A DNA stretch of 32,000 nt from an uncultured archaeon (GCA_964551375.1 CAZKBG010000001.1:450001-482000); one strand, 5' to 3'. Positions 4,688 to 29,090 are shown, counted from the first letter of the stretch. Notes: generated from the sequence alone by a model not told the origin. Made by a program: numbers and translations.

Positions 4688-4688
4688 T

Positions 4689-6941: not shown

Positions 6942-6951
6942 AAAAACTAAA

Positions 6952-7482
6952 TCACTTCAAGTTAATTACTTTATCAACAAACATTCCTGTCTCCTGAATC
7001 AAAAGCGACTGCTCGTTTGTATTAAGCGCGTAAAACACAGCCTTTGATTTTGAGGATTTTATTTTATTTATCAGCATCGAAACAAACTTTTGAACAGGCT
7101 CTTTTTTTTCGTAAATCAAAAGATTTGTCAGGGAATCAAAAATAACATACTCATAATCATGCCCCAAAAACCTGCTGACTGCAAGCGAAAGCTCGGTTAA
7201 CGCTCCCGGAGAATTAATGTAATAGCATCCTTTTGTCTGGTCGGGCACTTCTTTAATGGTTTTTGTGATAGCATCAATAAAAACAATATTATTCACATTT
7301 ATTTTGTTCTTTTTGAAAAGCTCCTTTAAAGAATCAAAGGTTTTATTCAGTGTCACATAGCAGACATTCTTTTTCGCAAGAATTTTAGCAATCTCAAGAA
7401 TTGTTTCATTATAATCAAGGCTGTCAACTAAAAGTAAAACCGTCTGGTTGCTCTTTAATTCATTTTCAATATTTATCTTCAT
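6952..7482 (-). CDS. KaiC/RecA-fold paralog lacking the Walker A P-loop (predicted inactive ATPase-like adaptor)
   Basis: The 176-aa protein is colinear with the KaiC-like ATPase at 8311..9108. TVLLLVDSLDYNE sits where FVLLAGGAGTGKT is, CYVTLNKTFDSL matches IYVSLEENYDQ, YVIFDSLTNLL matches RLVIDSISVLE, and FVDKVINL matches VADGVILL. There is no GxxGxGK[ST] motif anywhere. Confidence 0.65.
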   Translation of the reverse strand: MKINIENELKSNQTVLLLVDSLDYNETILEIAKILAKKNVCYVTLNKTFDSLKELFKKNKINVNNIVFIDAITKTIKEVPDQTKGCYYINSPGALTELSLAVSRFLGHDYEYVIFDSLTNLLIYEKKEPVQKFVSMLINKIKSSKSKAVFYALNTNEQSLLIQETGMFVDKVINLK

Positions 7483-7566
7483 TAAAATACCTTTTCCATT
7501 TTGTCCATCATTTTTATTTTTTATTTTGCATTTAACTTTTCATTCCAATTAAATCCAAAATTATTT

Positions 7567-7938
7567 CTATTTTGTAAGCTCCCTTACTTTAGCCACTAAC
7601 TCATTGATATCAAACGGCTTCTGAAGAAAATCAACAACATTGCCTTCTTTTAGCAAATCTTCCCTCTCGGCTTCGGATAATCGCACAACGCTAAGATATG
7701 CAACTTTTATTCCCTTGATTTTAGGAATTATTTTTTTCACAGGAGTTCCCGGCATCATGATATCCATAAGGATAAGATCCGGCTTGTCCTTTTTTAATTT
7801 TTCAAGACAATCGTCGCCGTTTATCGCAGTAAGCACCTTAAAACCGTTTCTCTCAAGAACAGTCTTCACAGTGTACCTAATATCGTCCTCGTCATCAACG
7901 ACCATTACCACTTTTTCAGTTGTGTTTTTCTCCGCCAT
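7567..7938 (-). CDS. Stand-alone response regulator receiver (CheY-like)
   Basis: VVMVVDDEDD acidic pocket, phospho-acceptor context DLILMDIMMPG, conserved Lys in FLQKPF. At 123 aa there is no output domain. AGGTGGTAAA precedes the ATG. Confidence 0.9.
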   Translation of the reverse strand: MAEKNTTEKVVMVVDDEDDIRYTVKTVLERNGFKVLTAINGDDCLEKLKKDKPDLILMDIMMPGTPVKKIIPKIKGIKVAYLSVVRLSEAEREDLLKEGNVVDFLQKPFDINELVAKVRELTK

Positions 7939-7946
7939 TTTACCAC

Positions 7947-8297
7947 CTAAGCAACAAGCTTCTTTACTATTTTAACATACTCCGACTCATCAAAGGGTTT
8001 CTGGATAAATCCGTCAACCTTTGAAAGATTAACCTCTTTTTTAGGAACAATTGACACAAACGCAAGCTTGCATTTGCCATTCAAACGCTCCCTCAAAAGC
8101 CTTGCAAGATCATAACCCGACAAGGTATTCATTTTTATATCAAGCAAAACAAGATTAAACTTTTCCAGCTTGAATAAATCCCACGCAAGCGCGCCGTTTG
8201 TCGCAACGTGAACTTCAATGCTTTCCTTTTCAAGAAGCTTTTTTGCTCTTTGCAGGTAATTGAAGTCGTCATCAACCAGCAGCACTTTTTTAACCAA
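7947..8297 (-). CDS. Stand-alone response regulator receiver (CheY-like)
   Basis: KVLLVDDD, LVLLDIKMNTLSG and IQKPF motifs. Track ORF is 7947..8348 with a TTG start that overlaps the KaiC-like gene by 38 nt. I prefer the in-frame TTG at 8297, which follows TAG-CGGAGGTGGTGCG: the KaiC stop, then a strong Shine-Dalgarno sequence with 5-nt spacing. Confidence 0.85.
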   Translation of the reverse strand: MVKKVLLVDDDFNYLQRAKKLLEKESIEVHVATNGALAWDLFKLEKFNLVLLDIKMNTLSGYDLARLLRERLNGKCKLAFVSIVPKKEVNLSKVDGFIQKPFDESEYVKIVKKLVA

Positions 8298-8310
8298 CGC
8301 ACCACCTCCG

Positions 8311-9108
8311 CTAGAATGTTTCGAACGATTCTTCGAAAGGATAAACAACCATTCCTTCCCTCTTCTTTATCTGAACAGGGCGGATTTTTAACGAGTGATT
8401 TGTCGCACGCATTTTTCTCACGCTGATTGCTCTGTTTAGAACATTCTCTTTCTTATCAAGCAGAAGCAAAATTACCCCGTCTGCAACAAATTCTTCAACA
8501 CCGCTTCGCGACATGCTGACTCGGTCTTCTTTTGTTTCTGAAATCGCAAGAGTGGTAACGCCAGTTTTTTTCAAAGCATTCGCAAGATCAACAATGCTTC
8601 TCCTTGTTTTGAATCTGTCCTCAAAATAAAGCTCAAGAACCGAGATTGAATCAATAACCAGCCTCTTTGCGCCGATTGAATCAATCGCATCAAGAATACT
8701 TTCAATTAATTTGTCAAAATCATAAATCTTGGGCTCAAGAACCAGAACCTGTCTTGTTGCAACAAGCTTAGTTAAGTCCATTCCAAACCCGACCATCTGA
8801 AGCTTGTTCTGGTCATAGTTTTCTTCAAGAGAAACATAAATTCCCTTCTCGCCGTTAATTGCCCCAAAAGTCAAAAAATTCATCCCAAAAATAGTTTTTC
8901 CTGTTCCAGCTCCGCCCGCAAGAAGAACAAAAGAATTTTTCGGCAGTCCGCCCTCAATAAGCTCATCAAACCCTTTAACTCCTGTGGCAACTCTTTCAAT
9001 TTCAGGCTGTTTTACTTTAGAAAAATCGATGCTTGAAGCAAGGTCCTTAGATTTTTTTGATTTAGAAAAATTCTTTTTAGACACAATATCTCCCCAAACA
9101 ACTAGCAT
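8311..9108 (-). CDS. Single-domain KaiC-like / RecA-superfamily ATPase
   Basis: ATGVKGFDELIEGGLPKNSFVLLAGGAGTGKTIFGMNF is the KaiC-type N-terminus with Walker A. Walker B is KRLVIDSISVLE. It is the first gene of the signalling operon. A GTG at 9084 preceded by GGGGAG is an alternative start. Confidence 0.85.
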   Translation of the reverse strand: MLVVWGDIVSKKNFSKSKKSKDLASSIDFSKVKQPEIERVATGVKGFDELIEGGLPKNSFVLLAGGAGTGKTIFGMNFLTFGAINGEKGIYVSLEENYDQNKLQMVGFGMDLTKLVATRQVLVLEPKIYDFDKLIESILDAIDSIGAKRLVIDSISVLELYFEDRFKTRRSIVDLANALKKTGVTTLAISETKEDRVSMSRSGVEEFVADGVILLLLDKKENVLNRAISVRKMRATNHSLKIRPVQIKKREGMVVYPFEESFETF

Positions 9109-9195: not shown

Positions 9196-9651
9196 ATGAA
9201 AGAAAACGCCAAAATGAACAATAAAGCGCAGTCCGGACTTGAGTATTTAATGACTTACGGATGGGCAATAATAGCAATTGCCGTGATTGTCGGAATAATT
9301 ATGGTGCTTTTAGGCAATTCCACAACAGTTCAGCAGTGCAACATGAGCCCGTCACACGGGGCAATCACTTATGTTGAAAGTTCAGCGCTGGCAAACACAT
9401 TTACTTTCATAATAAAAAATGACACAGGAAAAACAATCACTGGAGTAACTTACTCTTTTAAAGGAAACTTCGCACAAAGCGCATCAACTACAAATGACAG
9501 TTCAATTACAGCAAATTCAACCGTGACAAAAACAGTTTCAAACACAGGACTTTCAAAACAAATGCCTTATGATGAAACTATCACAATTAATTACAACAGA
9601 CAGGGCGTTTTGATGTCATCAACACTAAACTGCACAGGAACAGTACCATAA
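9196..9651 (+). CDS. Archaeal type IV pilin (class III signal peptide); candidate major pilin
   Basis: The N-terminus MKENAKMNNKAQSGLEYLMTYGWAIIAIAVIVGIIMVLL has the [KR][GA]-Q-x-x-L-E-Y class III signal followed by a hydrophobic helix. By my count there are six N-x-S/T sequons (NST, NMS, NDT, NDS, NST, NCT) in the ~110-aa mature part, plus two Cys. It has its own promoter. Confidence 0.8.
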   Translation: MKENAKMNNKAQSGLEYLMTYGWAIIAIAVIVGIIMVLLGNSTTVQQCNMSPSHGAITYVESSALANTFTFIIKNDTGKTITGVTYSFKGNFAQSASTTNDSSITANSTVTKTVSNTGLSKQMPYDETITINYNRQGVLMSSTLNCTGTVP

Positions 9652-9824: not shown

Positions 9825-10841
9825 CTAAAACAAAACTATGTTTTTTAATCCAATCATCTGCCCAAGCATCAGAACTGCAATAAAATAAACCGCAAGCGAA
9901 ACGATGATAAGAATAGGGAAGAATCTCAAACCAGCAAGCTCCCTTCCGTACCTTATTATTCCGATTAAAAGACTTGCAAAAAATGATGTGCAGAACAGGC
10001 ATGCAAATGAAAAAAACCTAATCATTTCAAAAGGAACCTGCTGTTTTTGGGTCGTGTCCCCAAACAGAGTTGAAATGAACGGGATTGAATGGCTGTCAAC
10101 ATTTTCAGGAATTGAAATAGTCTTCTGGTCAGACATCATCTGGGAAACAACAACACCAGAGCCAAAAAGCATGGGCGCGCCTATAGCAGCAGCTATGATA
10201 ATTAAGAAAATGTACATGGAAATATTCGCTTTAATCTCGCTGTTTATCGCTTCTTCCTCTCTCAAATCCTTTGAAACTCTAAGAAGCAGGCTTCCAAAAG
10301 AGCCTCCTTTTTTTATTCCTTCAATAAGCAGCCAGATTGTTTTTCCAAGAACATACGAATTAACTTTTTTAGAAATGGTTGTTAACGCCTCTTCAAGAGT
10401 TCTGCCCGAAAACATTTCCTTTGCGGCGCGCTTTAACAAAAGCGCAAGCTCTCCAAATTCAGGGCGCGCAGACTCAACAAGCGCATTTTCAACAGTAAGC
10501 CCCGAGTTAACATTGGTGGCAACAAGCTCAAGCGCATTGGGAAGATTCTGCTCAACCCTTCTGACTCTTGCAAGCTCATAATAATCAAGCACAACATAAA
10601 TAGCAAATAATATTATTACAGCCGCAGCAAAGAATGCCCCAATTGCATAAAAAATTGACTTATAGACAAAGAATATGTCAAATCCTGCCAAAGCTCCCAG
10701 CATAAAAGGGAGCGCCATCAAAAATCCGATTATTTTTCTTTTTGAAACCTTATCTCCTTCAATCCAGAGCTTACGCTCAAAAGCATCAGTAATAAAAGAA
10801 GGAAATAAATCCCCAATCCTAAGCCAAATTGCCCCCTTCAT
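9825..10841 (-). CDS. Pilus platform membrane protein with a single T2SSF domain (TadC/FlaJ-like)
   Basis: The T2SSF-type cytoplasmic block is QNLPNALELVATNVNSGLTVENALVESARPEFGELALLLKRAAKEMFSGRTLEEAL...GSFGSLLLRVSKDL. It is flanked by TM helices. The start abuts the previous gene's stop (TAAATG). Confidence 0.8.
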   Translation of the reverse strand: MKGAIWLRIGDLFPSFITDAFERKLWIEGDKVSKRKIIGFLMALPFMLGALAGFDIFFVYKSIFYAIGAFFAAAVIILFAIYVVLDYYELARVRRVEQNLPNALELVATNVNSGLTVENALVESARPEFGELALLLKRAAKEMFSGRTLEEALTTISKKVNSYVLGKTIWLLIEGIKKGGSFGSLLLRVSKDLREEEAINSEIKANISMYIFLIIIAAAIGAPMLFGSGVVVSQMMSDQKTISIPENVDSHSIPFISTLFGDTTQKQQVPFEMIRFFSFACLFCTSFFASLLIGIIRYGRELAGLRFFPILIIVSLAVYFIAVLMLGQMIGLKNIVLF

Positions 10842-11738
10842 TTAAACACTCCCCATTAAACTTGGCCTTCTTGATTTCATAAAACCAACAAGCATAAATT
10901 GCGCAACAACTACTCCGACTAATAAAATTATAAACAAGGAAGAGCTGATTTGAACTCCGGGAAGCGAATTCATCACAGCAAGGAAAGTCAAAGCCATTGC
11001 GGGAACAATAACCGCTATCATCATGTAAACAAGAGTAAGAACTCTAAGAGAAGAACCGTAAGCAATAATTTGTGTTTTTTGATATCTTTCAAGAGATTCA
11101 AGACTTTCTTCAATAACCTGCGCAATCGGCGCGCCTGCTTTCATTCCTGATACAATCTGCCACAATACTTTGCTCAAAAACTGGCTTGAATTTTTTGAAG
11201 CAACATCCTTAAGCACCTCATCTTCCTTTTCACCCGAGTTAAGCCTTTTTGCAATTCCCCTAAAAACTGCCCCCATTTCTCCAAGCTCATTTCTTGACAC
11301 AATAACCATCGCATCAAAAAGGCTCACACCTGCTTCAAGCTGGACAAGAACAACTTTTAATCCAAAGATTAAGTTTGAATCAATTGAGGCAACTTTCTTC
11401 TGCATGTAAATTGTGGGGAACAAAAGCATTCTAATAAAAACAAGAACCCCTATGGCAAGCCCTACTCCAATTCCAGCAATAATCGCCAAGTCAAATTTCG
11501 CAAGCGAAAGAGTGCCCGCAATAACAAAAGCAATAATCACGCCGTAAAAGAGCGAGCTAAAAATTGACACGGCAAAATAATCATCGCTTCCCATGTCAAT
11601 GCCTGCCTGCTCAAGCACCGTGTCATAGCCAGGAAAGAAACTTCCAATAAATTCTCCGACTCCAAGAAACGGCGCGCTGAGTTTTTTAGCAGTATTCTCG
11701 CTTATCGGCACGAACAAAAAGTTTGTCATCAAAATCAC
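10842..11738 (-). CDS. Pilus platform membrane protein with a single T2SSF domain (TadB/FlaJ-like)
   Basis: The T2SSF-type block is LIFGLKVVLVQLEAGVSLFDAMVIVSRNELGEMGAVFRGIAKRLNSGEKEDEVL...GAPIAQVIEESLESLE, with flanking TM helices. The start is GTG at 11738 or ATG at 11729, directly after the ATPase gene. Confidence 0.8.
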   Translation of the reverse strand: MILMTNFLFVPISENTAKKLSAPFLGVGEFIGSFFPGYDTVLEQAGIDMGSDDYFAVSIFSSLFYGVIIAFVIAGTLSLAKFDLAIIAGIGVGLAIGVLVFIRMLLFPTIYMQKKVASIDSNLIFGLKVVLVQLEAGVSLFDAMVIVSRNELGEMGAVFRGIAKRLNSGEKEDEVLKDVASKNSSQFLSKVLWQIVSGMKAGAPIAQVIEESLESLERYQKTQIIAYGSSLRVLTLVYMMIAVIVPAMALTFLAVMNSLPGVQISSSLFIILLVGVVVAQFMLVGFMKSRRPSLMGSV

Positions 11739-11740
11739 TC

Positions 11741-13300
11741 TTATTCAAACAAAAGCCTCGGGTCCTTCCCTTTTTGAGAAAACTCATAAACTAAATCAGG
11801 CGACTGATAGTACTTTGCAAAAATCATTCCCAAGTCATCAAGTCTGAAAATATTGTTTTTCACAAGCCAATCAAGTATTTTTTCCTTCTGCTTTAATTCA
11901 GAATCTATTTCTCCCGCGCCCATTCCGGTGTGAACGCTGATTAAGTCATAGAATCTCACGCTATCATGCTGTTTTTTGATAATGCCCTTTGTTGAAATAT
12001 ACCTAAACAAAACATTTGCCTTTGCGGACTGTTCAATTCCCCTGTCTTCAACTACAATTTCAGAAATCTGGTAAATTGACCTCTGGCTTGTCTTGCTGTT
12101 TCTAAAAAGAGTAATGTTAAGCCCGATTGACGCAAGCATCCCTTGCGGAATATCAAGCGGAGGGTTAGCAAATCTTCTAATTGTTTCCTCAGCAGTATCC
12201 GCGTGGAAAGTAGCATACACACTATGCCCTGTGTTCATCGCTTCAAACATTACTTCCGCTTCCTTCTGCCTTCTAACTTCCCCAACAACTATTCTATCCG
12301 GACGCATTCTCAGCGAGTTCACCAAAAGGTCAAGCATTGAAATCTCCCCCTTGCCTTCAGTGTTTGCGGGCCTTGAAACCATAGGCACCCAGTGAAGGAA
12401 TTTAGGAAGAGTTAATTCCCTTGTGTCTTCAATTGAAATTACTCTCTGAGTAGGAGGAATTAATGAAAGGCACGCGTTAAGAAGCGAAGTTTTACCGCTT
12501 GCTGTGCCCCCAGAGAAAATTACATTAAGCTCGTAATGCATAGCCATCCATATAATTGCCATTGATTCGCTTGAAGCGCTTCCGTTTGAAATTAATTCTG
12601 TAACAGTCCAGGGATTTCTTCTAAATCTTCGGATTGTAATAGTATTGCCGTGAGACGACACAGGGTTAAGCGTCGCATTAGCTCTGTCCCCGCTTGAAAG
12701 ATGCGCGTCAAGAAGCGGAGTAAGAACGGTAATCTGCTTTCCTGATCTTCTTGCAATGATTGAAGCAAAGTTTTCAATTTCTTTTTCAGAATCAAACCAT
12801 AAATTAGTCTTCATCCAGCCGTATTTTTTGTGATAAATCCACGCAGGCTCAATAGCCGAGTTAAGCACTATTTCTTCAATATTGTCATCGAGAAGAACAT
12901 ATTCCAAATCCGCGAGCCCCAGCATTTCGTTAATTAAAATTTCAACAAGGACTTCAATATTCTTTTTTTCAGAGCCGAACAATCTTTTTGCCAAAAGCTC
13001 ATGCGCAAAAAACGAGAAATCTTTTCTCACAGATTCTATAAATTTCTGGTCAACCATTTTCTCAACAGGGATTTTTGAACGAGAAAGAATTTCAATTTTA
13101 ATTTCATCAAGAGTAATTCTTGTTCCGGAGCCAACTTCAGGATAAGATATGTGGTAGTGCGGAACAAAATCCTTAGGATCGTTGAATAAAATAACTTTAA
13201 CCGCAGCCTTGCAGTTTTCAATAGGATATTCGCCAATCATTGCTTCAGGATTAACAATCTCAGCTTCTCTTCTTCTGATACCGCTGCTTGATTCATTCAT
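11741..13300 (-). CDS. Type IV pilus / secretion ATPase (FlaI / PilB / VirB11 family)
   Basis: Walker A is FSGGTASGKTSLLNACL. Other family motifs are VISIEDTRELTL, the Asp box RPDRIVVGEVRRQKEA, and the His box NTGHSVYATFHA. Confidence 0.9.
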   Translation of the reverse strand: MNESSSGIRRREAEIVNPEAMIGEYPIENCKAAVKVILFNDPKDFVPHYHISYPEVGSGTRITLDEIKIEILSRSKIPVEKMVDQKFIESVRKDFSFFAHELLAKRLFGSEKKNIEVLVEILINEMLGLADLEYVLLDDNIEEIVLNSAIEPAWIYHKKYGWMKTNLWFDSEKEIENFASIIARRSGKQITVLTPLLDAHLSSGDRANATLNPVSSHGNTITIRRFRRNPWTVTELISNGSASSESMAIIWMAMHYELNVIFSGGTASGKTSLLNACLSLIPPTQRVISIEDTRELTLPKFLHWVPMVSRPANTEGKGEISMLDLLVNSLRMRPDRIVVGEVRRQKEAEVMFEAMNTGHSVYATFHADTAEETIRRFANPPLDIPQGMLASIGLNITLFRNSKTSQRSIYQISEIVVEDRGIEQSAKANVLFRYISTKGIIKKQHDSVRFYDLISVHTGMGAGEIDSELKQKEKILDWLVKNNIFRLDDLGMIFAKYYQSPDLVYEFSQKGKDPRLLFE

Positions 13301-13968
13301 TCAAGATCACCTTTCTCGCTAAAAACAATCCGTGGATTTCCCATTAGGGGATAAAATATTTTCATTCTGCCAGATTCTTCAAATACTCTTGCGAGCTCAA
13401 GAACGTCACTCTCTTTAACTGCGAGGGATTTTGACAAATCTGCAACTGAAACTGATTTTCTTACCGAGACAATAGAATACATTCTGTCAAAAATCGTCTT
13501 AACTTGATTTGAGCCTATTATTCCACCGTCAACAATTGATTTATCAGATGCATTTTTCTTATCCTTTGCGCTTATTGACGCCCACTTGCCTCTGCCTCCT
13601 TTTCCTTTATTGACCAAAATTATATTCTCTCTTGCAGCCCATCTCTTTCTCTTAACTTCAGGAGGACAAATTAAGTTTGACTTGCTCACGCTTGACAACT
13701 TTTCACTGTCATCGCAAATTTCATTAAAACTGGGTTTTGAGGATTGTTTGTTTTTCAAAGAAACCGCCTTTTTCGGCTTAACTGCCCCTTTAGAAAAAAC
13801 TTTTTTTGAAATAACTTTTGCTTTTTTCTTTATTCTAACCCCCTTATTGGTTTTTTTTTCATTTTTTTTAGCAGTATCTTTAACGCTGGCTTTAGCCTTA
13901 TTTTTGGCTTTGCCTTTAACCCCTCTTTTTCCGCCAAGGATTTCGTCTATTAGTTGAATATTAACCAT
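13297..13968 (-). CDS. Hypothetical protein: Lys-rich N-terminal half plus a C-terminal winged-helix-like domain
   Basis: The N-terminal ~100 aa are very Lys-rich (KGKAKNKAKASVKDTAKKNEKKTNKGVRIKKKAKVISKK). The C-terminal ~70 aa (SVADLSKSLAVKESDVLELARVFEESGRMKIFYP) look like a wHTH. Its stop overlaps the ATPase start (ATGA at 13297..13300). Confidence 0.55.
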   Translation of the reverse strand: MVNIQLIDEILGGKRGVKGKAKNKAKASVKDTAKKNEKKTNKGVRIKKKAKVISKKVFSKGAVKPKKAVSLKNKQSSKPSFNEICDDSEKLSSVSKSNLICPPEVKRKRWAARENIILVNKGKGGRGKWASISAKDKKNASDKSIVDGGIIGSNQVKTIFDRMYSIVSVRKSVSVADLSKSLAVKESDVLELARVFEESGRMKIFYPLMGNPRIVFSEKGDLE

Positions 13969-14059: not shown

Positions 14060-14929
14060 TCACTTATATCCACCAATACTTGGAGAAATTACTATCGCAT
14101 CGTCATTAACCCCTGCGCTTACAACCGAATCAATAAAATAAACATTTGAATCCAAATTAACCACTCTTGAAGCTGATTTCCAGGTTAAATTACCCACAGC
14201 ATAAGTGAAATTCAAATCGTTTGCTGAGCCAAGAGCGCCTGTAGTCATTATAATCGAACCGCTTTGAAGAGCATCAATGCTGTTGTCAAAATTAACTTTA
14301 AGCGTCCCGTTCTGGCTCCACACTCTAACTTTTAACCGCACAGGGTTGGCGCAAGAAACGCACAACGGAAGACTCGTTGAACTTACATTCATATCGCTTG
14401 TAACATTCACATCATAAAAAATTGTTGAGAATTTTCTTGCGCCGTAATTATATCTCACAATAGTATTATCAGAGAAGCCGTTTGTAAGCGAATGAACCAC
14501 ATTAAAGTCCTTTCCCCAAACTTGTATTTTTCCCGCATCAATTAATCCAAGATTTATTGAAACAGCGCCGTTGAATTTTGAGGAAAACAAGCTGTTCACT
14601 TTTGAAACCGCTCCAGAGATATTATTTCTCTGAGAAAGATTTGGAAAAGATTCCCTGAAGTTAAAACTGTTAAAATCAGATGAAAAAGTTACTCCGCCCA
14701 CGTTTGAATAAATTGAACTCAAAATGGATGCTGAAGAAACTTTTAAAGAAGCCGCGCTTTGGGAAGCAAGAATTCCGTTAAATGAAGTATTTGCTCCATT
14801 AGTAACTGCGCCCTCAAAGTAAGCAACTGAAATTAATAAAAGCGCGATGAAAAGAGTGGATAAAGTAACAAAAACTCCCCTCTCGCCGACAGCTGGCCGG
14901 CTTTTATTTCTTTGAATTTTTGATTTCAT
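14060..14929 (-). CDS. Pilin-like / pilus-associated protein (possible class III signal)
   Basis: The N-terminus NKSRPAVGERGVFVTLSTLFIALLLISVAYF has a basic residue, Gly, then a hydrophobic helix. The remainder is Ser/Asn-rich with many N-x-S/T sequons. Its start overlaps the previous gene's stop (ATGA at 14926..14929). Confidence 0.55.
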   Translation of the reverse strand: MKSKIQRNKSRPAVGERGVFVTLSTLFIALLLISVAYFEGAVTNGANTSFNGILASQSAASLKVSSASILSSIYSNVGGVTFSSDFNSFNFRESFPNLSQRNNISGAVSKVNSLFSSKFNGAVSINLGLIDAGKIQVWGKDFNVVHSLTNGFSDNTIVRYNYGARKFSTIFYDVNVTSDMNVSSTSLPLCVSCANPVRLKVRVWSQNGTLKVNFDNSIDALQSGSIIMTTGALGSANDLNFTYAVGNLTWKSASRVVNLDSNVYFIDSVVSAGVNDDAIVISPSIGGYK

Positions 14930-15366
14930 TTAGGCCACACCCTTGCCTTAGCAACGCCCAGATAATTAATATCATTATTTGCAAAAATCACAAAAGGGCG
15001 CGAAGTCTCAACAACCCCAATAACATTAGTATCTGCTGCATTAGCCACAGTTATTGAATCAATAAGAGCCATTGTGTTTGAATTGTATCTTGAAAATAAA
15101 ATGCTGTAATTATAATTTGGAGGCATATTTTGGGCAACGGCTGAATTTAGAGAAGAGTAGTTAAAAGAAGAAAGCGCGCCTGTTTTATCAAGCACGTTTA
15201 GTAAATCCAAAGAAACCTGTTTTTGAAAAGCCTTTGGAGAAGATGCTACCTGCGAATAAGAAACCGAGAAAAATAATCCAAGCGAAATTATAAGCACAAT
15301 AATCGCAAACACCGCATCAAGGCTGAAATGAAAGCCCTTATTGTTAATTTTAAAATTACTTTTCAT
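14926..15366 (-). CDS. Minor pilin-like protein (class III signal peptide)
   Basis: MKSNFKINNKGFHFSLDAVFAIIVLIISLGLFF has a KG/F cleavage-type motif followed by a hydrophobic helix. Confidence 0.7.
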   Translation of the reverse strand: MKSNFKINNKGFHFSLDAVFAIIVLIISLGLFFSVSYSQVASSPKAFQKQVSLDLLNVLDKTGALSSFNYSSLNSAVAQNMPPNYNYSILFSRYNSNTMALIDSITVANAADTNVIGVVETSRPFVIFANNDINYLGVAKARVWPK

Positions 15367-15802
15367 ACAAAATCACCGTTGCTTTCAGCGCAGTGTTGTT
15401 CATAGTAATAATTCTTTGAATTGAAATTGCCTGCCTTACTCCGCTCTGCCCGTAATTAAGATAAGTCGCTCCAGCTCCTGAAATAGTAACTTTGAAATCA
15501 TACCCTTCAATCCCAAGCTCCCTTTTCATGGAATTATAATCAACAGCTGAAAAACAGGAAAGCTTCTGCTGGGAGATTACATTCTTTTCAACTGCAAGCC
15601 CTCCAGCAAGGCAGTTTGTATCTGAAAAAATTGCTTCGGAAAGATAAAAAACATCAGACTGCATCTGATAAAGAGACTGCGTTTCAATTGCCGAACCCAG
15701 ATGCGAAAAAGTGAGCCCTGCCCCGAACCCCACAATAATTGTCGCCACAAGCGCAGCAGCCATTATGTCAAACCCTTCCGCCTGCCCCTTGTTATCCATC
15801 AT
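15356..15802 (-). CDS. Minor pilin-like protein (class III signal peptide)
   Basis: MMDNKGQAEGFDIMAAALVATIIVGFGAGL has a KG/Q motif followed by a hydrophobic helix. Confidence 0.7.
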   Translation of the reverse strand: MMDNKGQAEGFDIMAAALVATIIVGFGAGLTFSHLGSAIETQSLYQMQSDVFYLSEAIFSDTNCLAGGLAVEKNVISQQKLSCFSAVDYNSMKRELGIEGYDFKVTISGAGATYLNYGQSGVRQAISIQRIITMNNTALKATVILYEK

Positions 15803-15819
15803 ACAAATCCCAAATTTAA

Positions 15820-16206
15820 TTAATTATTTATAAAAATAAAATTGCCGTCATACGAAATCCATAAATTTCCAACATTTAAATTTCTGTCAAGATTTGTCTG
15901 GAGAGTTTTGCAGAAAATTCCGTTAAAACTCTGAGAAGCGTAATAATTCACGTAAATAGTGTCGTTTGCGAGCCGAAAGTTTCTGTCAATAACTCCGTTC
16001 CAGTCAAGAGAACTATACTTTGCCGAATAAATTGCTTGCGCAATTGAATCGCAAATAACTTTATCATTCACCTGGTCAGTGCTTGCCTGAATTGCCTGCG
16101 CTTGAGTTGAGGTAAAATAAAAAACTCCAATAAAGAAAATCAAAAAGACAACCATGCCGGACATTGTCTCAAGCGACACTTGGGCGCGTGAATTAGAACG
16201 AAACAT
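15820..16206 (-). CDS. Minor pilin-like protein (class III signal peptide)
   Basis: MFRSNSRAQVSLETMSGMVVFLIFFIGVFYF has an RA/Q-V-S-L-E motif followed by a hydrophobic helix. GCGGGGTGTAATCA precedes the ATG. Confidence 0.7.
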   Translation of the reverse strand: MFRSNSRAQVSLETMSGMVVFLIFFIGVFYFTSTQAQAIQASTDQVNDKVICDSIAQAIYSAKYSSLDWNGVIDRNFRLANDTIYVNYYASQSFNGIFCKTLQTNLDRNLNVGNLWISYDGNFIFINN

Positions 16207-16209
16207 TGA

Positions 16210-17313
16210 TTACACCCCGCCGGCAACATATTTCTTTAATTGGAAATAGTCAAAATCCCAATACTGCGCATTACCGCCTGAACTTTTTATAACCTGAATT
16301 ATTGGCCCGCAAGAATTAGCAATGACATTAGGAATGTTTGTTGTTATTACCCCAATATTAGTATCTATTCCGGTAAAAGTATTTCGAATATAAAAAGTAA
16401 TAACAGAAGCGTCTGAGTTGCTTTCAATCTTAAAATCATTCCAATTATTGTCGAGATGCACCCCTGTATCAATTCTTGTTCTTACGCCACCTTTTGCGGT
16501 AACTATATTCCAAGTAGGAATTGTGGTAACAGCAGAGTTATCCTCTTCAATATATACTCCGTCAGTAAAATCACCGTTGGTTGTATTATCCCCGCAGCCG
16601 ATTCTTAAAATAAATTTATTCGACTGAGTCAAGTCGCTAAAAAGCTTTGCATTAAATTCCATTGTTTCATTTCCTGTAAAAAACATTGAAGTAGTTCCAA
16701 GGTTTATTGTAGCATATTTGTTGTTACCAGTTCCAGGATTCATCGAAAGTATCCCCATTCTATTAACATCAGCAACATCAAATGAAACACTTGCACCACC
16801 GCCTGAACTCGCAGAATTCCAACCCAGCTGCCCAATCTGCCCGCTTGTCAAATCCCTACCCATGAATTCTTCCTTAAAGATTAAACTATTATCAAGCGTC
16901 GGAGGCGTATAACCATAATCTCCCATATCAACGCTTAACGCGCCTGTACCTGCGGTGCTAGTTAAAATGCCTTTTCCAAGAGCTGATAAGTATGTTTCAT
17001 TTGAAAGTGAGTTGCTGTCAGTTTGAGTGATGAAATTTGCATCGCTAAAAGTATTTCCATTATACCTGTTTAAATCCGAAATTTTATAACAAGTCAAAAA
17101 ATCGCAGATAAAATTCTTATCCGACTTTAAGACATCAATTGTGTTTAAATCAATCAGCCACTTATTTGAAGTGTTCAATAAACCAAGAGAATAAACATTC
17201 CCGTCAGTAAAAGCAGCAAATGCATTGCATGAAAAAAAAAGCACTGCAAAGATAGCAGCGATTTTAAAATAATCCACTACCTTCCCCCCGGAATAGGTTT
17301 GATTAAAGTCCAA
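16210..17313 (-). CDS. Secreted protein with a Sec-type signal peptide; paralog of the C-terminal module of the upstream 589-aa pilin
   Basis: Signal-peptide-like (V)DYFKIAAIFAVLFFSCNAFA/AF. Residues ~38-367 align colinearly with residues ~270-589 of ORF 17277..19046. The track start at 17313 is a TTG inside the upstream gene. An in-frame GTG at 17277 overlaps the upstream stop (TAGTG) and follows GGGGGGAAGG, so it may be the real start. Confidence 0.7.
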   Translation of the reverse strand: MDFNQTYSGGKVVDYFKIAAIFAVLFFSCNAFAAFTDGNVYSLGLLNTSNKWLIDLNTIDVLKSDKNFICDFLTCYKISDLNRYNGNTFSDANFITQTDSNSLSNETYLSALGKGILTSTAGTGALSVDMGDYGYTPPTLDNSLIFKEEFMGRDLTSGQIGQLGWNSASSGGGASVSFDVADVNRMGILSMNPGTGNNKYATINLGTTSMFFTGNETMEFNAKLFSDLTQSNKFILRIGCGDNTTNGDFTDGVYIEEDNSAVTTIPTWNIVTAKGGVRTRIDTGVHLDNNWNDFKIESNSDASVITFYIRNTFTGIDTNIGVITTNIPNVIANSCGPIIQVIKSSGGNAQYWDFDYFQLKKYVAGGV

Positions 17314-19046
17314 TAATCAACAACAGCAGTTCTTGCAGTGGTTCCGGCGCTTTTAATTATATAAAAAGTAGGTCCTGTTTCTCTCCCTGCTGCAATAGGC
17401 ACATTTGAGCCGATTACTCCAACATTTGTGTCATTAATGTAAAAAGTCGCGCCGTTGCCTGTTGCATTAAAATCAATTTTGAATCTTGCCCAGCTGGTGC
17501 TCACAGCAGCAGACGTATTTACTTTTGTTCGGGTTGAGTTATTTGAAGCAGCAATTCTCCAATTCAAAGACTGAGTCCTGTCATATTCGAAATACACTCC
17601 GTCAACAAAATCAGCGCTTGGAGAATCCCCTAAACCCATTCTAACAATATAATTATTTGTTGCATCAGCAAGAATAGGAAGCTGCATGCTAAATTCAATA
17701 ACTTCGTCTCCGGATAAACGAACAGTAGTAATTCCAAGATCAACGCAGGATCTTCCTTTCGCAGTTGTTCCGGTAGTCATAGTCAATAATCCAATACGAT
17801 TAACATCAGCAAGCCCGCAAGAAGCAGCAGCGCCTGCGCCGTTCACAGTAAGCGACCAGCCAAGTGCACCAAGCCTTCCTGTAACATTGTTTGAGCCAAC
17901 AAACGGCTCTTGAAGAACTGTCGCATAAGATAAACTCCCTGGAATATAATCAAGCCCAGGAGTTACTGTTTGAAGCACTCCGTTTCCATCATGCTTCAAT
18001 AACCCAGTCGGAAGAGTAGATAACGCAAATGCATTAGGAAGACGAGCATCAGGAGTTCGAATTATATAATTTGCATCAGCAGGCGCCCCCGCAGGACCAA
18101 GCCTGTTAAGGTCAGAAATCAAGTAACAAGTATTTGCGTCGCAAAGCTTATTCAAATCCGATTTTAAGAAACCTATTGTGTTCAAATCAATCTGCCACTT
18201 ATTTAAAATACTCAACAATCCGAGAGAATAAACATTCCCGTCAGGAGTACCGCCAACACAAGCGCCTTGAGTAACGCATTGCGCAGAATTTATTGAAACC
18301 TGAATAAAAGTAGTTGCTGAGCCGATATTAGAATCAATTCTTAAAATTCCTGAATAAACACCCGCGGTTTGATTTGCAGGGAATGATATTGTAAGATTGA
18401 CATTTTGTGATGCATTTGCATCAAGAGCGGATGGAAGAGCGCCAAGAGAAACAAGCGGAGAAACATTCCCTGTTATTGAGGAAGTAAAACTTCCGGCTTT
18501 TCCGCCGGATTGATTCCAAAGATTAATCGGATGACTTGTATTATACCCAGTATTATAGTCAACCGCAACCAAAATCATTGCGGGAGTAAGGCTTATTCCA
18601 AGAGTTTCACTTGCAAGACTCACAGCCCCAGACGAATCAACTTCAAGAGTAAGAGTTTGAACCCCTTCAGTTATAGGAAGAGCTCCGGAAACATTTGCTT
18701 TTGTGTCAGCATAATAAGTGACATTTCTATCCCCTGAAAGAATAACCAATCTTACCAAATTATTCTGCAAAGAATATGAAATAACATCAGGAGGCATTTC
18801 AACATCAACGCTGATCCTGCTTCCAGGGCCAAGAGCATACACCTGATTAATTGCGGATGCAATTTTATTCACCGCAGTAATAGCTTTTGAGTCATTAATT
18901 GAATTAGTCACCGTGCTTGTGGAGTAAAAGAAAATAATTCCCACAAAAACCAGCACAATTCCAGCAACCACAATATATTCCAGCGCAACCTGCGCCCTGC
19001 TTTTGCCGCGTGTGTTATTATTGATTGAATTAAGAATTTCCAACAC
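17277..19046 (-). CDS. Large pilin-like protein: class III signal peptide, Ig-like middle region, and a ~320-aa C-terminal beta-rich (lectin/jelly-roll-like) module; candidate pilus adhesin
   Basis: The N-terminus NNNTRGKSRAQVALEYIVVAGIVLVFVGIIFFY is an RA/Q-x-x-LEY class III signal. The middle region has a CARDB/Ig-like pattern (NVNLTISFPANQTAGVYSGILRIDSNIGSATTFIQVSIN). The C-terminal module starts at GNVYSLGLL and contains LGALGWS...ADVNRIGLLTMTTG...IVRMGLGD...DFVDGVYFEYD...WARFKIDF...TFYIND. It is the first gene of the operon and uses a GTG start at 19046. Confidence 0.75.
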   Translation of the reverse strand: MLEILNSINNNTRGKSRAQVALEYIVVAGIVLVFVGIIFFYSTSTVTNSINDSKAITAVNKIASAINQVYALGPGSRISVDVEMPPDVISYSLQNNLVRLVILSGDRNVTYYADTKANVSGALPITEGVQTLTLEVDSSGAVSLASETLGISLTPAMILVAVDYNTGYNTSHPINLWNQSGGKAGSFTSSITGNVSPLVSLGALPSALDANASQNVNLTISFPANQTAGVYSGILRIDSNIGSATTFIQVSINSAQCVTQGACVGGTPDGNVYSLGLLSILNKWQIDLNTIGFLKSDLNKLCDANTCYLISDLNRLGPAGAPADANYIIRTPDARLPNAFALSTLPTGLLKHDGNGVLQTVTPGLDYIPGSLSYATVLQEPFVGSNNVTGRLGALGWSLTVNGAGAAASCGLADVNRIGLLTMTTGTTAKGRSCVDLGITTVRLSGDEVIEFSMQLPILADATNNYIVRMGLGDSPSADFVDGVYFEYDRTQSLNWRIAASNNSTRTKVNTSAAVSTSWARFKIDFNATGNGATFYINDTNVGVIGSNVPIAAGRETGPTFYIIKSAGTTARTAVVDYWTLIKPIPGGR

Positions 19047-19068: not shown

Positions 19069-19076
19069 TTTAATAA
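19069..19076 (-). promoter_or_regulatory. Putative TATA box of the pilin operon
   Basis: The minus strand reads TTATTAAA, centred about 26 nt upstream of the GTG start at 19046. This fits a leaderless transcript. Confidence 0.35.
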
Positions 19077-26405: not shown

Positions 26406-27374
26406 TCAATACTCGCTCATTAGTTTCTGCTTGTGCTGCTTTAAGGGTTTAGCAGTGAATCCAAGCCGATTCAATTTTCTTGCAAACTCTTCGCAAAATC
26501 CATGGTCAGTAAGAACAAGCTTGGGATTTGATGCTTTAACATACGCAATCAAATCATTAAAATCAGCATGATTGCTTAGTTTAAAAGTCCTGTCAAACGC
26601 CCCTCTAAATTCCCACCCAGTCACAAGCGCTGAGTGAATTTTTCTTTTATCAAAATGCTCAAGCGTTGCAAACAAATGCCTATCAACCATCTGCGGAGGC
26701 ATGATTAAAACGCTTGATTCTTTAAGATTATGATCAAGCTTCAAATAATTTCCAAGCTTTATTCCATATTTTTCATAAATTTTATTCGCATCAAAGATAG
26801 AATCATGAACAATCGGCACAACCCCCGCTTCGTTTGCAATCCTTGTAAGCTCCTGACTCTTCCCAAGCGAATACCCCGCAAGAAGAACAAGCCCTTCTTT
26901 TGAATTCTTCTTAACCCAGTCAATCATTTCACTAACAACATCCTCCTGCTTTGGAAAAACATATTCAGGAGAGCCAAAAGTTGTCTCAAGCACAAGCGTT
27001 TCGCACTCAACAGGCTCTGCTCCCTTAAATAAAAGAGAATCCTGAAGCCTAAAATCAGAAGTAAACACATGCTCTTTTCCATCATGCGAAAACTTCGCCT
27101 GCGCAGAGCCGAGAATATGCCCGTTAGGAAACAATTCAAGCTCAAATTCATCAAACTTTGTTTTTTTATTAAAATCAATGCTTGAAAACTCCGCTTCCCC
27201 AAACCTAAGCTTCACAAAATCAATCGTTGGAGGGGTTGCAAAAAACACGGATTTTTTTGACAATTTTACATGATCAGAATGCGCATGAGAAAGAAAAACC
27301 TGCCTCTGCTTTGGCGCTCGGTGAGGGTCAATACAAAGCGATGAAAAAGTAATACCATTATCCTGGCGAAACAT
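26406..27374 (-). CDS. Metallo-beta-lactamase fold, beta-CASP-type nuclease (short form, ~322 aa)
   Basis: MBL motifs are LSHAHSDH (HxHxDH), NGHILGS and FTSDF. Beta-CASP-like motifs are LETTFG (A), LSNHAD (B) and LTDHG (C). The track ORF extends to 27539. I prefer the ATG at 27374 (MFRQDNG), which removes a hydrophobic nonsense extension and sits about 26 nt from a TTTTATAC box. Confidence 0.75.
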   Translation of the reverse strand: MFRQDNGITFSSLCIDPHRAPKQRQVFLSHAHSDHVKLSKKSVFFATPPTIDFVKLRFGEAEFSSIDFNKKTKFDEFELELFPNGHILGSAQAKFSHDGKEHVFTSDFRLQDSLLFKGAEPVECETLVLETTFGSPEYVFPKQEDVVSEMIDWVKKNSKEGLVLLAGYSLGKSQELTRIANEAGVVPIVHDSIFDANKIYEKYGIKLGNYLKLDHNLKESSVLIMPPQMVDRHLFATLEHFDKRKIHSALVTGWEFRGAFDRTFKLSNHADFNDLIAYVKASNPKLVLTDHGFCEEFARKLNRLGFTAKPLKQHKQKLMSEY

Positions 27375-27395
27375 ACTGTAATAATCTTGCTTAAA

Positions 27396-27403
27396 GTATA
27401 AAA
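27396..27403 (-). promoter_or_regulatory. Putative TATA box of the MBL nuclease gene
   Basis: The minus strand reads TTTTATAC, centred about 26 nt upstream of the ATG at 27374. Confidence 0.3.
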
Positions 27404-27449
27404 GCACTATTAAGCCACGACTGATGTTTTGTCCAGCCATAGAGAAATG

Positions 27450-27457
27450 TATATATA
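27450..27457 (+). promoter_or_regulatory. Putative TATA box of the coiled-coil protein gene
   Basis: TATATATA is centred about 27 nt upstream of the ATG at 27480. Confidence 0.35.
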
Positions 27458-27479
27458 CAAAAAAACCCTTTATTCTCGC

Positions 27480-28520
27480 ATGAGCCAGGCGCTGGAAAAT
27501 AAAGTAGAGAAAGCAATTGTAAGCATTAACGAGCTTCATGACACAATAGCGAAAGTAAACTGGGCAACGCTAAAAAGGGACGGATTTGTTTTTGAGCTTG
27601 AACACAGCGACAAAAGACTCAAAGACATTTATCTTGCGCTCAACGAGATAAATAAAGAATTAAAGCTCCTCCTTGAGAAAAATACTCCAACTCTTGACTC
27701 CATATTAAGCGAACTTTCAAGGGAAATGACAATAATTGAGTCAAACATAATAATGGAGAAAAAGAAAAAACTAAGGCAGGAAATGGTAAACGCGCTTGAA
27801 TCAGTTGACGTGCCCGATTTATACTCCTCACTTCAGCAGAAAATATTATCACTTTCATTAAAATTAAGATATAACATTGACAGAATCAAAAATTTCCTTT
27901 CAGCAAGAAAAATGCCTTTTGTAAAAAAAGGCTCAACAGCAAAACACCTTCTTGACGCGCTCTCAATGAAAGAGCAGGAACTAAACGAACTCAAACAAAA
28001 ATCATTAGAGCTGAAAAGAAAATCCTACTTTGGAAATGTAACAGAAAAAACAATTGCCGACATCGAGTCAGAGCTTCATGAAATGGACAAAAAACTCAAC
28101 GAAACAGTGACTGAAACTTCAAAGTCGCTTAAAACCCACTTTGCGCAGATAAATTACGTTGAAGGAAGTTTCATTGACCTCAAAAAAAGAGTTGAAGAGA
28201 TTGACGCCACCCACTCGCAATTTTCCAAAAAAGCTCTTGAAGTAATAAGAGAGCTCAAAAAAGAAAGAGATTTTGCAAAAACCCTCGCGCTTGAAATGGA
28301 GCACGAAACCCACAGCAGAAGAAACGAATACACAAAGCAGATTCTTTCAATTGAAGAAAAAAAGAATGCGATTGAAGAACGCCTCGCTGAAAAGCACGAT
28401 AAAGAAACAGAACACATCAAACGACAGCTTGAAGAGAAAAGCGCGGCATTAAAACACGCTCACAAACTAATTGAAAAACTTGAAAATGAAGTAAAAGAAC
28501 TAAAATCCCAAAAAGCATAA
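27480..28520 (+). CDS. Coiled-coil protein, function unknown
   Basis: The ~346-aa protein has a K/E/L-rich heptad-like sequence throughout (for example LEEKSAALKHAHKLIEKLENEVKELKSQKA) and no TM or catalytic motif. The track start at 27429 precedes the TATA box, so I use the ATG at 27480 (MSQALENK). Confidence 0.6.
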   Translation: MSQALENKVEKAIVSINELHDTIAKVNWATLKRDGFVFELEHSDKRLKDIYLALNEINKELKLLLEKNTPTLDSILSELSREMTIIESNIIMEKKKKLRQEMVNALESVDVPDLYSSLQQKILSLSLKLRYNIDRIKNFLSARKMPFVKKGSTAKHLLDALSMKEQELNELKQKSLELKRKSYFGNVTEKTIADIESELHEMDKKLNETVTETSKSLKTHFAQINYVEGSFIDLKKRVEEIDATHSQFSKKALEVIRELKKERDFAKTLALEMEHETHSRRNEYTKQILSIEEKKNAIEERLAEKHDKETEHIKRQLEEKSAALKHAHKLIEKLENEVKELKSQKA

Positions 28521-28973: not shown

Positions 28974-29090
28974 ACACTAAATAACACAACAACCTAATTT
29001 AATTCTTTCACTTTCGCCTAAAAAAACAGGATTTTTTCAAATACACAATCTTTATAAAAAAGAACTTCTTAGTTATTGCAGTGTTATTTG

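Follow-up and report, generated by a model that had tools for sequence, protein, structure and literature searches.

The DNA analysed here is a stretch of 32,000 nucleotides (nt) from the genome of an uncultured archaeon (GCA_964551375.1, CAZKBG010000001.1:450001-482000), in the following called the window. It contains a type IV pilus locus in which the first two genes of the pilin operon share a module of approximately 320 amino acids (aa). The first gene encodes a protein of 589 aa, which is very probably a modular pilin with a head of the type found on phage fibre tips. The second gene encodes a secreted paralog of the stalk and the head of this pilin. On balance and with modest confidence, we read the pair as a minor, probably tip-located pilin that carries a phage-fibre-type adhesin head and cooperates with its secreted copy. 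The two genes comprise the following features, each given with the evidence it is based on:

17277-19046, minus strand: 589-aa modular type IV pilin, first gene of the pilin operon, GTG start (open reading frame, exact match in public collections, architecture from Pfam and AlphaFold2 (AF2))
18993-19046, minus strand: class III (prepilin) signal peptide, residues 1-18, predicted cleavage SRA/QVALEY (FlaFind-like pattern)
18615-18992, minus strand: pilin module with an N-terminal helix (residues 17-72) and a beta-sheet (residues 77-144) (AF2, alignment with the pilin of the related locus L049)
18279-18554, minus strand: possible immunoglobulin (Ig)-like beta-sandwich spacer, residues ~165-256 (AF2 strands, predicted local distance difference test (pLDDT) 50-64)
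18102-18242, minus strand: two-Cys connector, copy 1, residues 269-315, DGNVYSLGLL..NKWQIDLNTIG.LKSD.N.LCDANTCY.ISDLNR (conservation in the paralog)
17925-18101, minus strand: one copy of a widespread fibre repeat, residues ~316-374, YIIRTPDARLPNAFALSTLPTGLLK..GNGVLQ...DY (profile positions 55-113)
17292-17924, minus strand: concanavalin A (ConA)-like jelly-roll head of the SO2946-like_C family, residues ~375-585 (Pfam, AF2, Foldseek, viral loci)
16210-17277, minus strand: 355-aa paralog with Sec signal and the same connector, repeat and head; 367 aa if read from a TTG at 17313 (open reading frame, BLASTP)
17215-17277, minus strand: Sec-type signal peptide MDYFKIAAIFAVLFFSCNAFA/A (read from the sequence)
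17065-17205, minus strand: two-Cys connector, copy 2, in the secreted paralog (BLASTP alignment)
16213-16878, minus strand: diverged SO2946-like head of the secreted paralog (aligns to the pilin head and keeps its invariant residues)
17102-17207, plus strand: DNA direct repeat, copy A, 106 nt, 81% identical to copy B, holds a 22-nt exact match (repeat comparison)
18139-18244, plus strand: DNA direct repeat, copy B, 106 nt (repeat comparison)

Both open reading frames are real and lie on the minus strand, and the exact 589-aa protein is present in public protein collections. A preceding reading of the window, made by a model from the sequence alone, had aligned the two proteins by eye and proposed that they are paralogs. 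The formal comparison bears this out: BLASTP returned one colinear alignment between residues 269-588 of the pilin and residues 37-366 of the paralog (367-aa numbering) with 40% identity, 12 gaps and an E-value of 4e-73. The sequence-only reading had also treated the common module as a single unit, which had to be given up. The module consists of three separable pieces, namely a ~47-aa CxxxxCY connector, one copy of the fibre repeat and a jelly-roll head of ~210 aa.

The N-terminal part of the 589-aa protein has the hallmarks of an archaeal type IV pilin. As had been suggested, it starts with a class III signal, in which the site SRA/QVALEY and the adjoining hydrophobic stretch fit a FlaFind-like pattern (RAQVAL at residue 17, maximum hydropathy of 3.29 at residue 25). 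The Pfam models Class_IIIsignal and DUF7287 gave weak matches to the N-terminus, under their cut-offs, and a 128-aa pilin encoded downstream bears the same signal motif. The AF2 model of the pilin module contains helices at residues 17-44 and 50-72 and strands at residues 77-144, with a pLDDT of ~66-86 obtained from a shallow alignment. Residues 17-142 aligned end to end with the complete, stand-alone 135-aa pilin of L049 (30% identity, E 2e-17). Since the match covers a whole pilin, all that follows beyond approximately residue 145 is a graft on a normal pilin. The class III motif, the helix and sheet and the T2SSE/T2SSF neighbours, whose synteny is also found in the related loci L017 and L018, mark the protein as a very probable archaeal type IV pilin. 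Its combination of a pilin module with a module that is not specific to pilus biology is the one that defines modular pilins (PMC8179133). The bacterial prepilin N-methylation motif IPR012902 gave no Pfam match in the 589-aa protein at E-values up to 1. Given this result and the archaeal-type signal, the protein resembles the bacterial modular pilins in its working but stands outside that set.

Between the pilin module and the shared module lies the region that had been described as Ig-like, a description that we keep as tentative. AF2 placed a beta-rich segment at residues 170-254 with low confidence, and Pfam gave weak hints only. The spacer is conserved at 45% identity in P0027, L014 and L016. 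Relatives that comprise pilin and spacer are scarce, as one protein among 5.8 billion searched and three metagenome loci were found. The number of N-x-S/T sequons is 15 in the pilin and 4 in the secreted paralog, a difference that may reflect unlike glycosylation of the two proteins.

The C-terminal head of the pilin was assigned to a family by Pfam. PF22237 (SO2946-like_C) matched residues 416-577 over the full profile (positions 1-163 of 163) with 56.9 bits and an E-value of 3.4e-15, the gathering cut-off of the family being 27 bits. The shared module, for which no named family had been recognized before, is thereby named in part, i.e. for its head. AF2 predicted the ~210-aa head as an all-beta, ConA-like jelly roll with a pLDDT of 85-97 (above 90 for residues 375-585 in the full-length model), in agreement with the ConA/LamG-type fold proposed from the motif spacing. 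When the full-length model was submitted to Foldseek, the matches were confined to the head. Among the structures of the Protein Data Bank (PDB) it retrieved a phi24B protein, the binding domains of botulinum and tetanus toxins, the lectins Emp46p and ERGIC-53, GH16 enzymes and SO2946. The latter (2a5z; E about 1e-6, TM 0.60-0.63) had the best target-normalised TM-score among the top matches. Comparison with BFVD yielded E-values of 1e-18 to 1e-15 for proteins of uncultured Caudovirales, including SO2946-like and Mtd-N-domain fibre proteins. Sequence searches of the PDB with the protein and with the family profile returned nothing, such that the link to SO2946 came there from the fold comparison only. 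PHROGs and NCBIfam gave no match for either protein. By sequence the head family is small, with 21 matches of which the best is 42% identical.

The genomic surroundings of these relatives point to phages. The homologue P0001, to which the pilin head is closer (44% identity) than to the head of its own paralog (36%), has capsid genes, a Mu-type portal and an S49 protease as neighbours within one module, and a homologue from a Blastocatellia metagenome-assembled genome (MAG) is part of a prophage, where it lies between a head-decoration-like gene and a tape-measure gene. In IMG/VR, 29 contigs encode relatives of the head at 30-46% identity. Fibres of 551-2902 aa, one of them with a collagen-like run, carry the domain as their C-terminal tip. 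A 973-aa protein of Pseudanabaena phage Pan5 (Pan5_18) also terminates in it, and the gene of this protein adjoins that of a short-tail-fibre receptor-binding domain. SO_2946 itself is annotated as a LambdaSo protein with a carbohydrate-binding module and is encoded beside a tail fibre gene (PMC4112983). A scan of genome contigs found eight loci, all from bacterial MAGs and several of them evidently phage contigs; neither an archaeal genome nor the source genome was among them. Judged from these matches, the closest relatives of the head lie in structural modules of tailed phages and at the C-terminal tips of long phage or bacterial fibre proteins.

From the predicted fold and the company of its relatives, the head probably functions as an adhesin. 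No match to a well-characterised family with a non-adhesive role turned up, which leaves the adhesive interpretation of the sequence-only reading standing. The head could also be an enzyme, i.e. a GH16-like glycanase or similar that would cut polysaccharide of a host or a matrix at the pilus tip. Glucanases and laminarinases of GH16 account for many of the best fold matches in the PDB, and depolymerases are frequent on phage fibre tips. Yet the GH16 motif E-[ILV]-D-[IVAF]-(x)-E was absent from both proteins in a regular-expression search, and the acidic residues of a local 'FEYD' sequence vary across the alignment of the head family. In addition, the best TM-scores and identities were those to SO2946, and the viral matches are non-enzymatic tip domains. 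We therefore give very little credence to an enzymatic role.

The stalk elements upstream of the head occur elsewhere as well. The two-Cys connector is shared with further archaeal surface proteins, and an exhaustive profile search found it in P0169, P0081 (two copies), P0133 and P0076, of which P0081, with its two connectors and a LamG domain, P0133 and P0076 are giant signal-peptide proteins. The fourth, P0169 (603 aa), starts as an archaeal-type pilin (HRA/QNSTEYLV) and continues after the connector with a Phage Tail Collar domain (PF07484, E 3e-24) and a Gp10_C baseplate-like region; read from its sequence, this is a second pilin onto which parts of a phage tail have been grafted. The fibre repeat that follows the connector is ~55 aa long (consensus YItQTpdg.LsnEQALs.LatGllKnttgTGvLs..a..G.DY) and was found by profile search in 1627 proteins, which usually carry 2-12 copies in tandem. 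Some of these proteins also contain the Pfam domain 'Phage tail repeat like'. The repeat segment itself matched no Pfam model in the proteins scanned.

The second gene directly adjoins the pilin gene. The junction reads ...GGGGGGAAGGTAGTGGATTATTTTAAA, in which the GTG at 17277 shares one base with the upstream TAG (taGTG) and is preceded by GGGGGGAAGG, a purine-rich, Shine-Dalgarno-like stretch. Gene callers picked the same GTG, resulting in a protein of 355 aa. Because of the overlap of start and stop codon, the purine-rich stretch and the choice of the gene callers, we place the start of the paralog at 17277 rather than at the TTG from which it had been read before as a 367-aa protein. Translation of the paralog is probably coupled to that of the pilin gene.

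That the second protein carries a Sec-type signal was confirmed. By eye the signal divides into MDYFK-IAAIFAVLFFS-CNAFA/A, i.e. a basic n-region, an h-region of ~12 aa and a small-x-small cleavage site, and a motif scan detected no class III motif in the protein. Three homologous partners from related loci (L018_332, P0011 and L017_826) have comparable Sec signals. The sequence FSC within the signal is lipobox-like, and the signal may thus be that of a lipoprotein. In its head the paralog keeps nine of nine family-invariant residues (G, G, D, D, G, Y, T, N and P).

The arrangement of a pilus-displayed and a secreted copy, which had been described for the window, recurs in related loci. In L018, where the T2SSE ATPase is 67% identical to that of the window, a 582-aa pilin is followed by a 332-aa Sec copy, four small pilins and the machinery genes. 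Both the pilin and the Sec copy have a PF22237 head on another type of stalk, which is built from two DTNWQTSW..FDANMK elements and a NYPxxCPxGxAIxDINxTxFTC element. In L013 the Sec-signal homologue P0011 is preceded by the end of a PF22237 protein and followed by a small pilin. L017 (ATPase 69% identical) is fully syntenic including its KaiC and two-component genes; it encodes a 528-aa pilin and an 826-aa Sec-signal protein that have in common a TNWQ stalk and a different, unassigned 'head B', at 68% identity. The genes of the pair are adjacent in all four loci that have a pair (window, L018, L013 and L017), with a stop/start overlap in the window. Head B is a C-terminal domain of ~150 aa without Pfam match that takes the place of the SO2946-like head (L017, 1157-5242; L014, 1957-3612). 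The secreted 826-aa protein of L017 additionally holds LamG_3 and DUF2341 domains.

Within each of the three pairs compared, the stalk is better conserved than the head. In the window the identity is 73% for the stalk vs. ~25-50% for the head, in L018 63-77% vs. 37-57% (with one compared segment at 70%) and in L017 77-83% vs. 47-67%. In the clade formed by L018, L013 and L016 the pilin copies group together (78-85% identity) and so do the secreted copies (60%). Comparing this clade with the window pair, 29 positions are common to the window pair only and 33 to the clade only, while 2 positions link the secreted copies across the lineages. As the within-lineage signatures far exceed the cross-lineage one, each lineage formed its pair, or kept the two members alike, independently of the other. 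Orthology of the secreted copies across lineages, considered because of a shared 'GG' loop, was rejected on the same counts.

Recombination between the copies had been raised as a possibility in the sequence-only reading, and it receives some support. The 22-nt stretch reported there as identical in both genes occurs exactly twice, at 17186 and 18223, with 0 occurrences expected from shuffled sequences, and forms the core of the 106-nt direct repeat at the 5' edge of the module. The connector is the best-conserved part between the window paralogs: it is 73% identical at the aa level and 82% at the nt level, and synonymous third positions are identical in 16 of 22 cases. In the stalk of L017, 23 of 24 and 21 of 25 synonymous sites are identical. 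This unusually high similarity of the stalk at synonymous sites and the homogenisation within lineages would also be expected if the tandem copy served mainly as a recombination donor, from which gene conversion would vary the pilus head in host range or antigenicity in the manner of the silent pilin cassettes of Neisseria. The second gene, however, is complete: it has a signal peptide, a Shine-Dalgarno-like stretch, an intact frame and all invariant residues, and hence is no silent cassette. Moreover, DNA identity within the window pair is only ~45-55% outside the connector, a level that does not suffice for frequent conversion. A donor role is thus very unlikely as the main purpose of the second gene.

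The pair is embedded in a pilus operon with the following further features:

14060-16206, minus strand: four more pilin-like genes of 128, 148, 146 and 289 aa, N-terminus with [KR][GA] followed by hydrophobic residues (open reading frames, motif scan)
9825-13300, minus strand: pilus machinery, T2SSE-type ATPase (11741-13300) and two T2SSF platform proteins (Pfam)
9196-9651, plus strand: 151-aa candidate major pilin, NNKA/QSGLEYLMTYGW... (37% identical to the L049 pilin at the same position, E 9e-23)
19069-19076, minus strand: TTATTAAA, possible archaeal TATA box, ~26 nt upstream of the GTG of the 589-aa protein (read from the sequence)

Orthologues of the four small pilin-like genes come after the big pilin also in L013, L014, L017 and L018. 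In 3' direction the pilin genes are followed by a gene for a Lys-rich 223-aa protein, the T2SSE ATPase, the two T2SSF proteins, a KaiC-like ATPase, receivers and sensors. The gene of the 151-aa small pilin is divergent and lies between the platform genes and the KaiC-like gene, a position at which it is kept in L049, L050, L017, L051 and L052. The 151-aa protein is likely the major pilin, i.e. the shaft subunit. One might instead take the 589-aa protein for the main shaft subunit, which would produce a thick pilus with heads along its full length. In favour of this, its gene is the first of the operon. What speaks against it is the conserved small pilin beside the machinery genes here, in L049 and in L050, as well as the L049 orthologue of the pilin module, which is one of several small pilins of its operon. 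Bulky modular pilins are furthermore thought to sit at pilus tips (PMC8179133). We consider a shaft of 589-aa subunits highly improbable. Based on the separate, conserved small pilin, the several minor-pilin-like genes of the operon and the knowledge on bulky modular pilins (PMC8179133), we infer a location of the 589-aa pilin at the tip.

In our preferred reading, a small and complete pilin module carries a beta-rich spacer, a disulfide-type connector, one fibre repeat and the C-terminal head as a graft. The analysis establishes this architecture, the fold, the family, the paralogy and the return of matched pairs in related loci; the location at the tip, the binding of a ligand and the joint action of the two proteins are our inference. 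The head would most likely bind a surface glycan of a partner cell or a substrate, as suggested by its fold and by the role of the family on phage fibres, such that the pilus would employ a device of the kind used by phage receptor-binding fibres. The next gene provides the same connector, repeat and head for export through the Sec pathway without a pilin anchor, and its product would work with the pilin in the same adhesion step. Cooperation of both proteins, in its simplest form by association of the stalks, is suggested by the independently maintained matched pairs, the higher conservation of the stalk than of the head and the tight linkage of the genes. Most likely the secreted copy would then dock onto the matching stalk of the pilin to provide an oligomeric head; alternatively it would act as a bridging factor, like CofJ and TcpF of the type IVb pili. 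That the secreted copy physically joins the stalk and the head of the pilin is in itself a tentative proposal. A more specific version, which as a whole we regard as unlikely, holds that pilin and free copies form a hetero-oligomeric, phage-fibre-like tip through the common stalk, e.g. from one pilin chain and two free chains, and that cassettes of stalk and head pass between these archaea and the gene pool of phages, with both genes receiving the new type at the same time. The pilus would in that case literally end in a receptor-binding fibre of the phage type.

Several results weigh against the preferred reading. Pfam did not match PF22237 in the paralog when it was searched alone (355 or 367 aa), and with 36% identity the head of the paralog has strongly diverged from that of the pilin. 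In both the module-only and the full-length AF2 models residues 255-373 are without resolved structure, such that the models lend no support to stalk oligomers. No prepilin peptidase gene was recognised within the window. Finally, L014 encodes a head-B pilin without adjacent secreted copy and L016 a solitary pilin with a PF22237 head; the partner is thus not obligatory or it is encoded elsewhere.

Some of these observations would also suit a secreted paralog that acts alone, as a free or envelope lectin in matrix formation, aggregation or blocking, and shares ancestry with the pilin head without a link to the pilus. The paralog has its own signal peptide and start codon, the low identity of the heads could mean another ligand, big pilins occur without a secreted copy in L014 and L016, and the extra LamG_3 and DUF2341 domains of the L017 version suggest functions of its own. 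For a lone lectin it would, however, not be expected that the type of head and stalk matches within the pair in three of three independent pairs, nor that the stalk rather than the head is best conserved between the partners. The constant adjacency of the two genes in the four pair loci and their overlap in the window likewise speak against it. We judge an independent lectin to be a rather unlikely, though still serious, alternative to a secreted copy that cooperates with the pilin.

Modular pilins with lectin modules are already known from bacteria. Streptococcus sanguinis has the modular type IV pilins PilB with a von Willebrand factor A (vWA) module and PilC with a ConA-like lectin module (PMC8179133, PMC9934059), and few modules are grafted onto bacterial pilins more often than ConA-like lectin modules (PF13385) (PMC8179133). 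Like PilB and PilC, the 589-aa protein combines a small pilin module with a bulky C-terminal binding module that is probably displayed at the tip. It differs from them by its archaeal class III signal, the SO2946-like head, the phage-fibre-like stalk and the secreted paralog of stalk and head.

A large minor pilin with a lectin-type tip domain and a secreted protein from the same operon are also found in the type IVb systems CofB/CofJ of enterotoxigenic Escherichia coli (PMC6048534) and TcpB/TcpF of Vibrio cholerae (PMC9565799). CofB forms a trimeric tip complex, and secreted partner and pilin cooperate in attachment (PMC6048534, PMC9565799). CofJ and TcpF are, however, described as distinct proteins and not as copies of the tip domain, whereas the archaeal partner is a paralog of the pilin's own stalk and head. 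With PilC/PilY1 a non-pilin adhesin joins the minor-pilin tip complex, and the same structural contribution may come from a fused part (cis) or from a separate protein (trans) (PMC13533445). The archaeal proteins have no sequence or fold relation to PilY1, and their cis and trans versions stand side by side.

With the phage fibre tips (LambdaSo SO_2946, 2a5z; Pan5_18; uncultured Caudovirales) the head has family and fold in common, at up to 44-47% identity, as well as its position at the C-terminal end of a fibrous stalk with fibre-repeat elements upstream. Unlike those tips, it comes from the type IV pilus operon of a cell, whose chromosomal synteny is conserved, and it is attached to a pilin or a Sec signal instead of a virion. 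The window genes are accordingly no phage tail-fibre or receptor-binding protein genes but members of a chromosomal pilus operon, in which only head and repeat are common with phage proteins. Provirus origin of the locus was ruled out by the conserved synteny and the housekeeping context, with deoxyhypusine synthase, GatA/GatB and tRNAs on either side of the pilus locus.

The named relatives closest to the T2SSE ATPase of the window are DPANN archaea (Candidatus Diapherotrites and Micrarchaeota), and we therefore take the window to come from a small archaeon of the DPANN group. In Saccharibacteria, ultrasmall episymbionts with small genomes, type IV pili mediate recognition and binding of host cells (PMC9894109, PMC11623550). 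Those systems are bacterial, in contrast to the archaeal locus described here. In the literature collection searched, no paper combines DPANN, pilin and concanavalin. To our knowledge, no equivalent head or pair has been described for type IV pili of episymbionts.

New about the locus are the archaeal (DPANN) setting, a head family of phage fibre tips together with phage-like stalk elements, the cassette-like exchange of stalks and heads among close relatives and the conserved, matched secreted paralog. Little is known about the means by which DPANN archaea, of which few are cultured, recognise other cells or surfaces and attach to them. The locus provides concrete, testable candidates in the pilin and its secreted twin, which may well be what determines the cell's choice of attachment partner. 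As with the receptor-binding proteins of phages, close relatives differ in their heads and stalks, and a secreted twin is kept alongside each head. The concept of modular pilins is extended in this way from bacteria to archaea, and pilus adhesins become tied to the domain pool of phage fibre tips. The fused (cis) and secreted (trans) copies also offer a natural system for studying how non-pilin adhesins join type IV pilus tips. Should the tip indeed be hetero-oligomeric, the pair would be a determinant of host or surface specificity of these DPANN archaea, possibly directed at the same receptors that phages of the partner organism use.

Regarding expression and control of the operon, the position of the possible TATA box ~26 nt from the GTG would imply a leaderless transcript. 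After the pilus genes the region 1949-9108 (minus strand) encodes the KaiC-like ATPase, two CheY-like receivers, a DUF7504-like protein, a HAMP histidine kinase and a PAS/dCache sensor. This gene set is syntenic in L017, which suggests that pilus activity is controlled by signals. The Lys-rich 223-aa protein (13297-13968, minus strand) is encoded directly upstream of the ATPase; its conservation is limited to the last ~70-80 residues, which match the C-termini of longer proteins at the same position (855 aa in L017, 656 aa in L018). Elsewhere in the window, 26406-28520 and 29076-30746 hold long open reading frames (377, 363 and 556 aa) without Pfam match, some of which overlap on opposite strands.

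Among the related loci, L051 has no pilin operon upstream of its ATPase gene, and the contig of L052 ends before the upstream region. L012 (5100-5560, on a contig shared with L015) contains a decayed orthologue of the big pilin with an in-frame TAA where its relatives have CAA (Gln). There a deletion fuses the stalk to the 3' end of a hemerythrin gene, which is intact in L014 (4948-5355), and a tRNA comes next. L049 (13454-18941) is a more distant, Diapherotrites-like pilus locus in which the equivalent pilin is the plain 135-aa protein. The large protein of its pilin cluster has 772 aa, a class III signal and a vWA domain, and recalls PilB of S. sanguinis.

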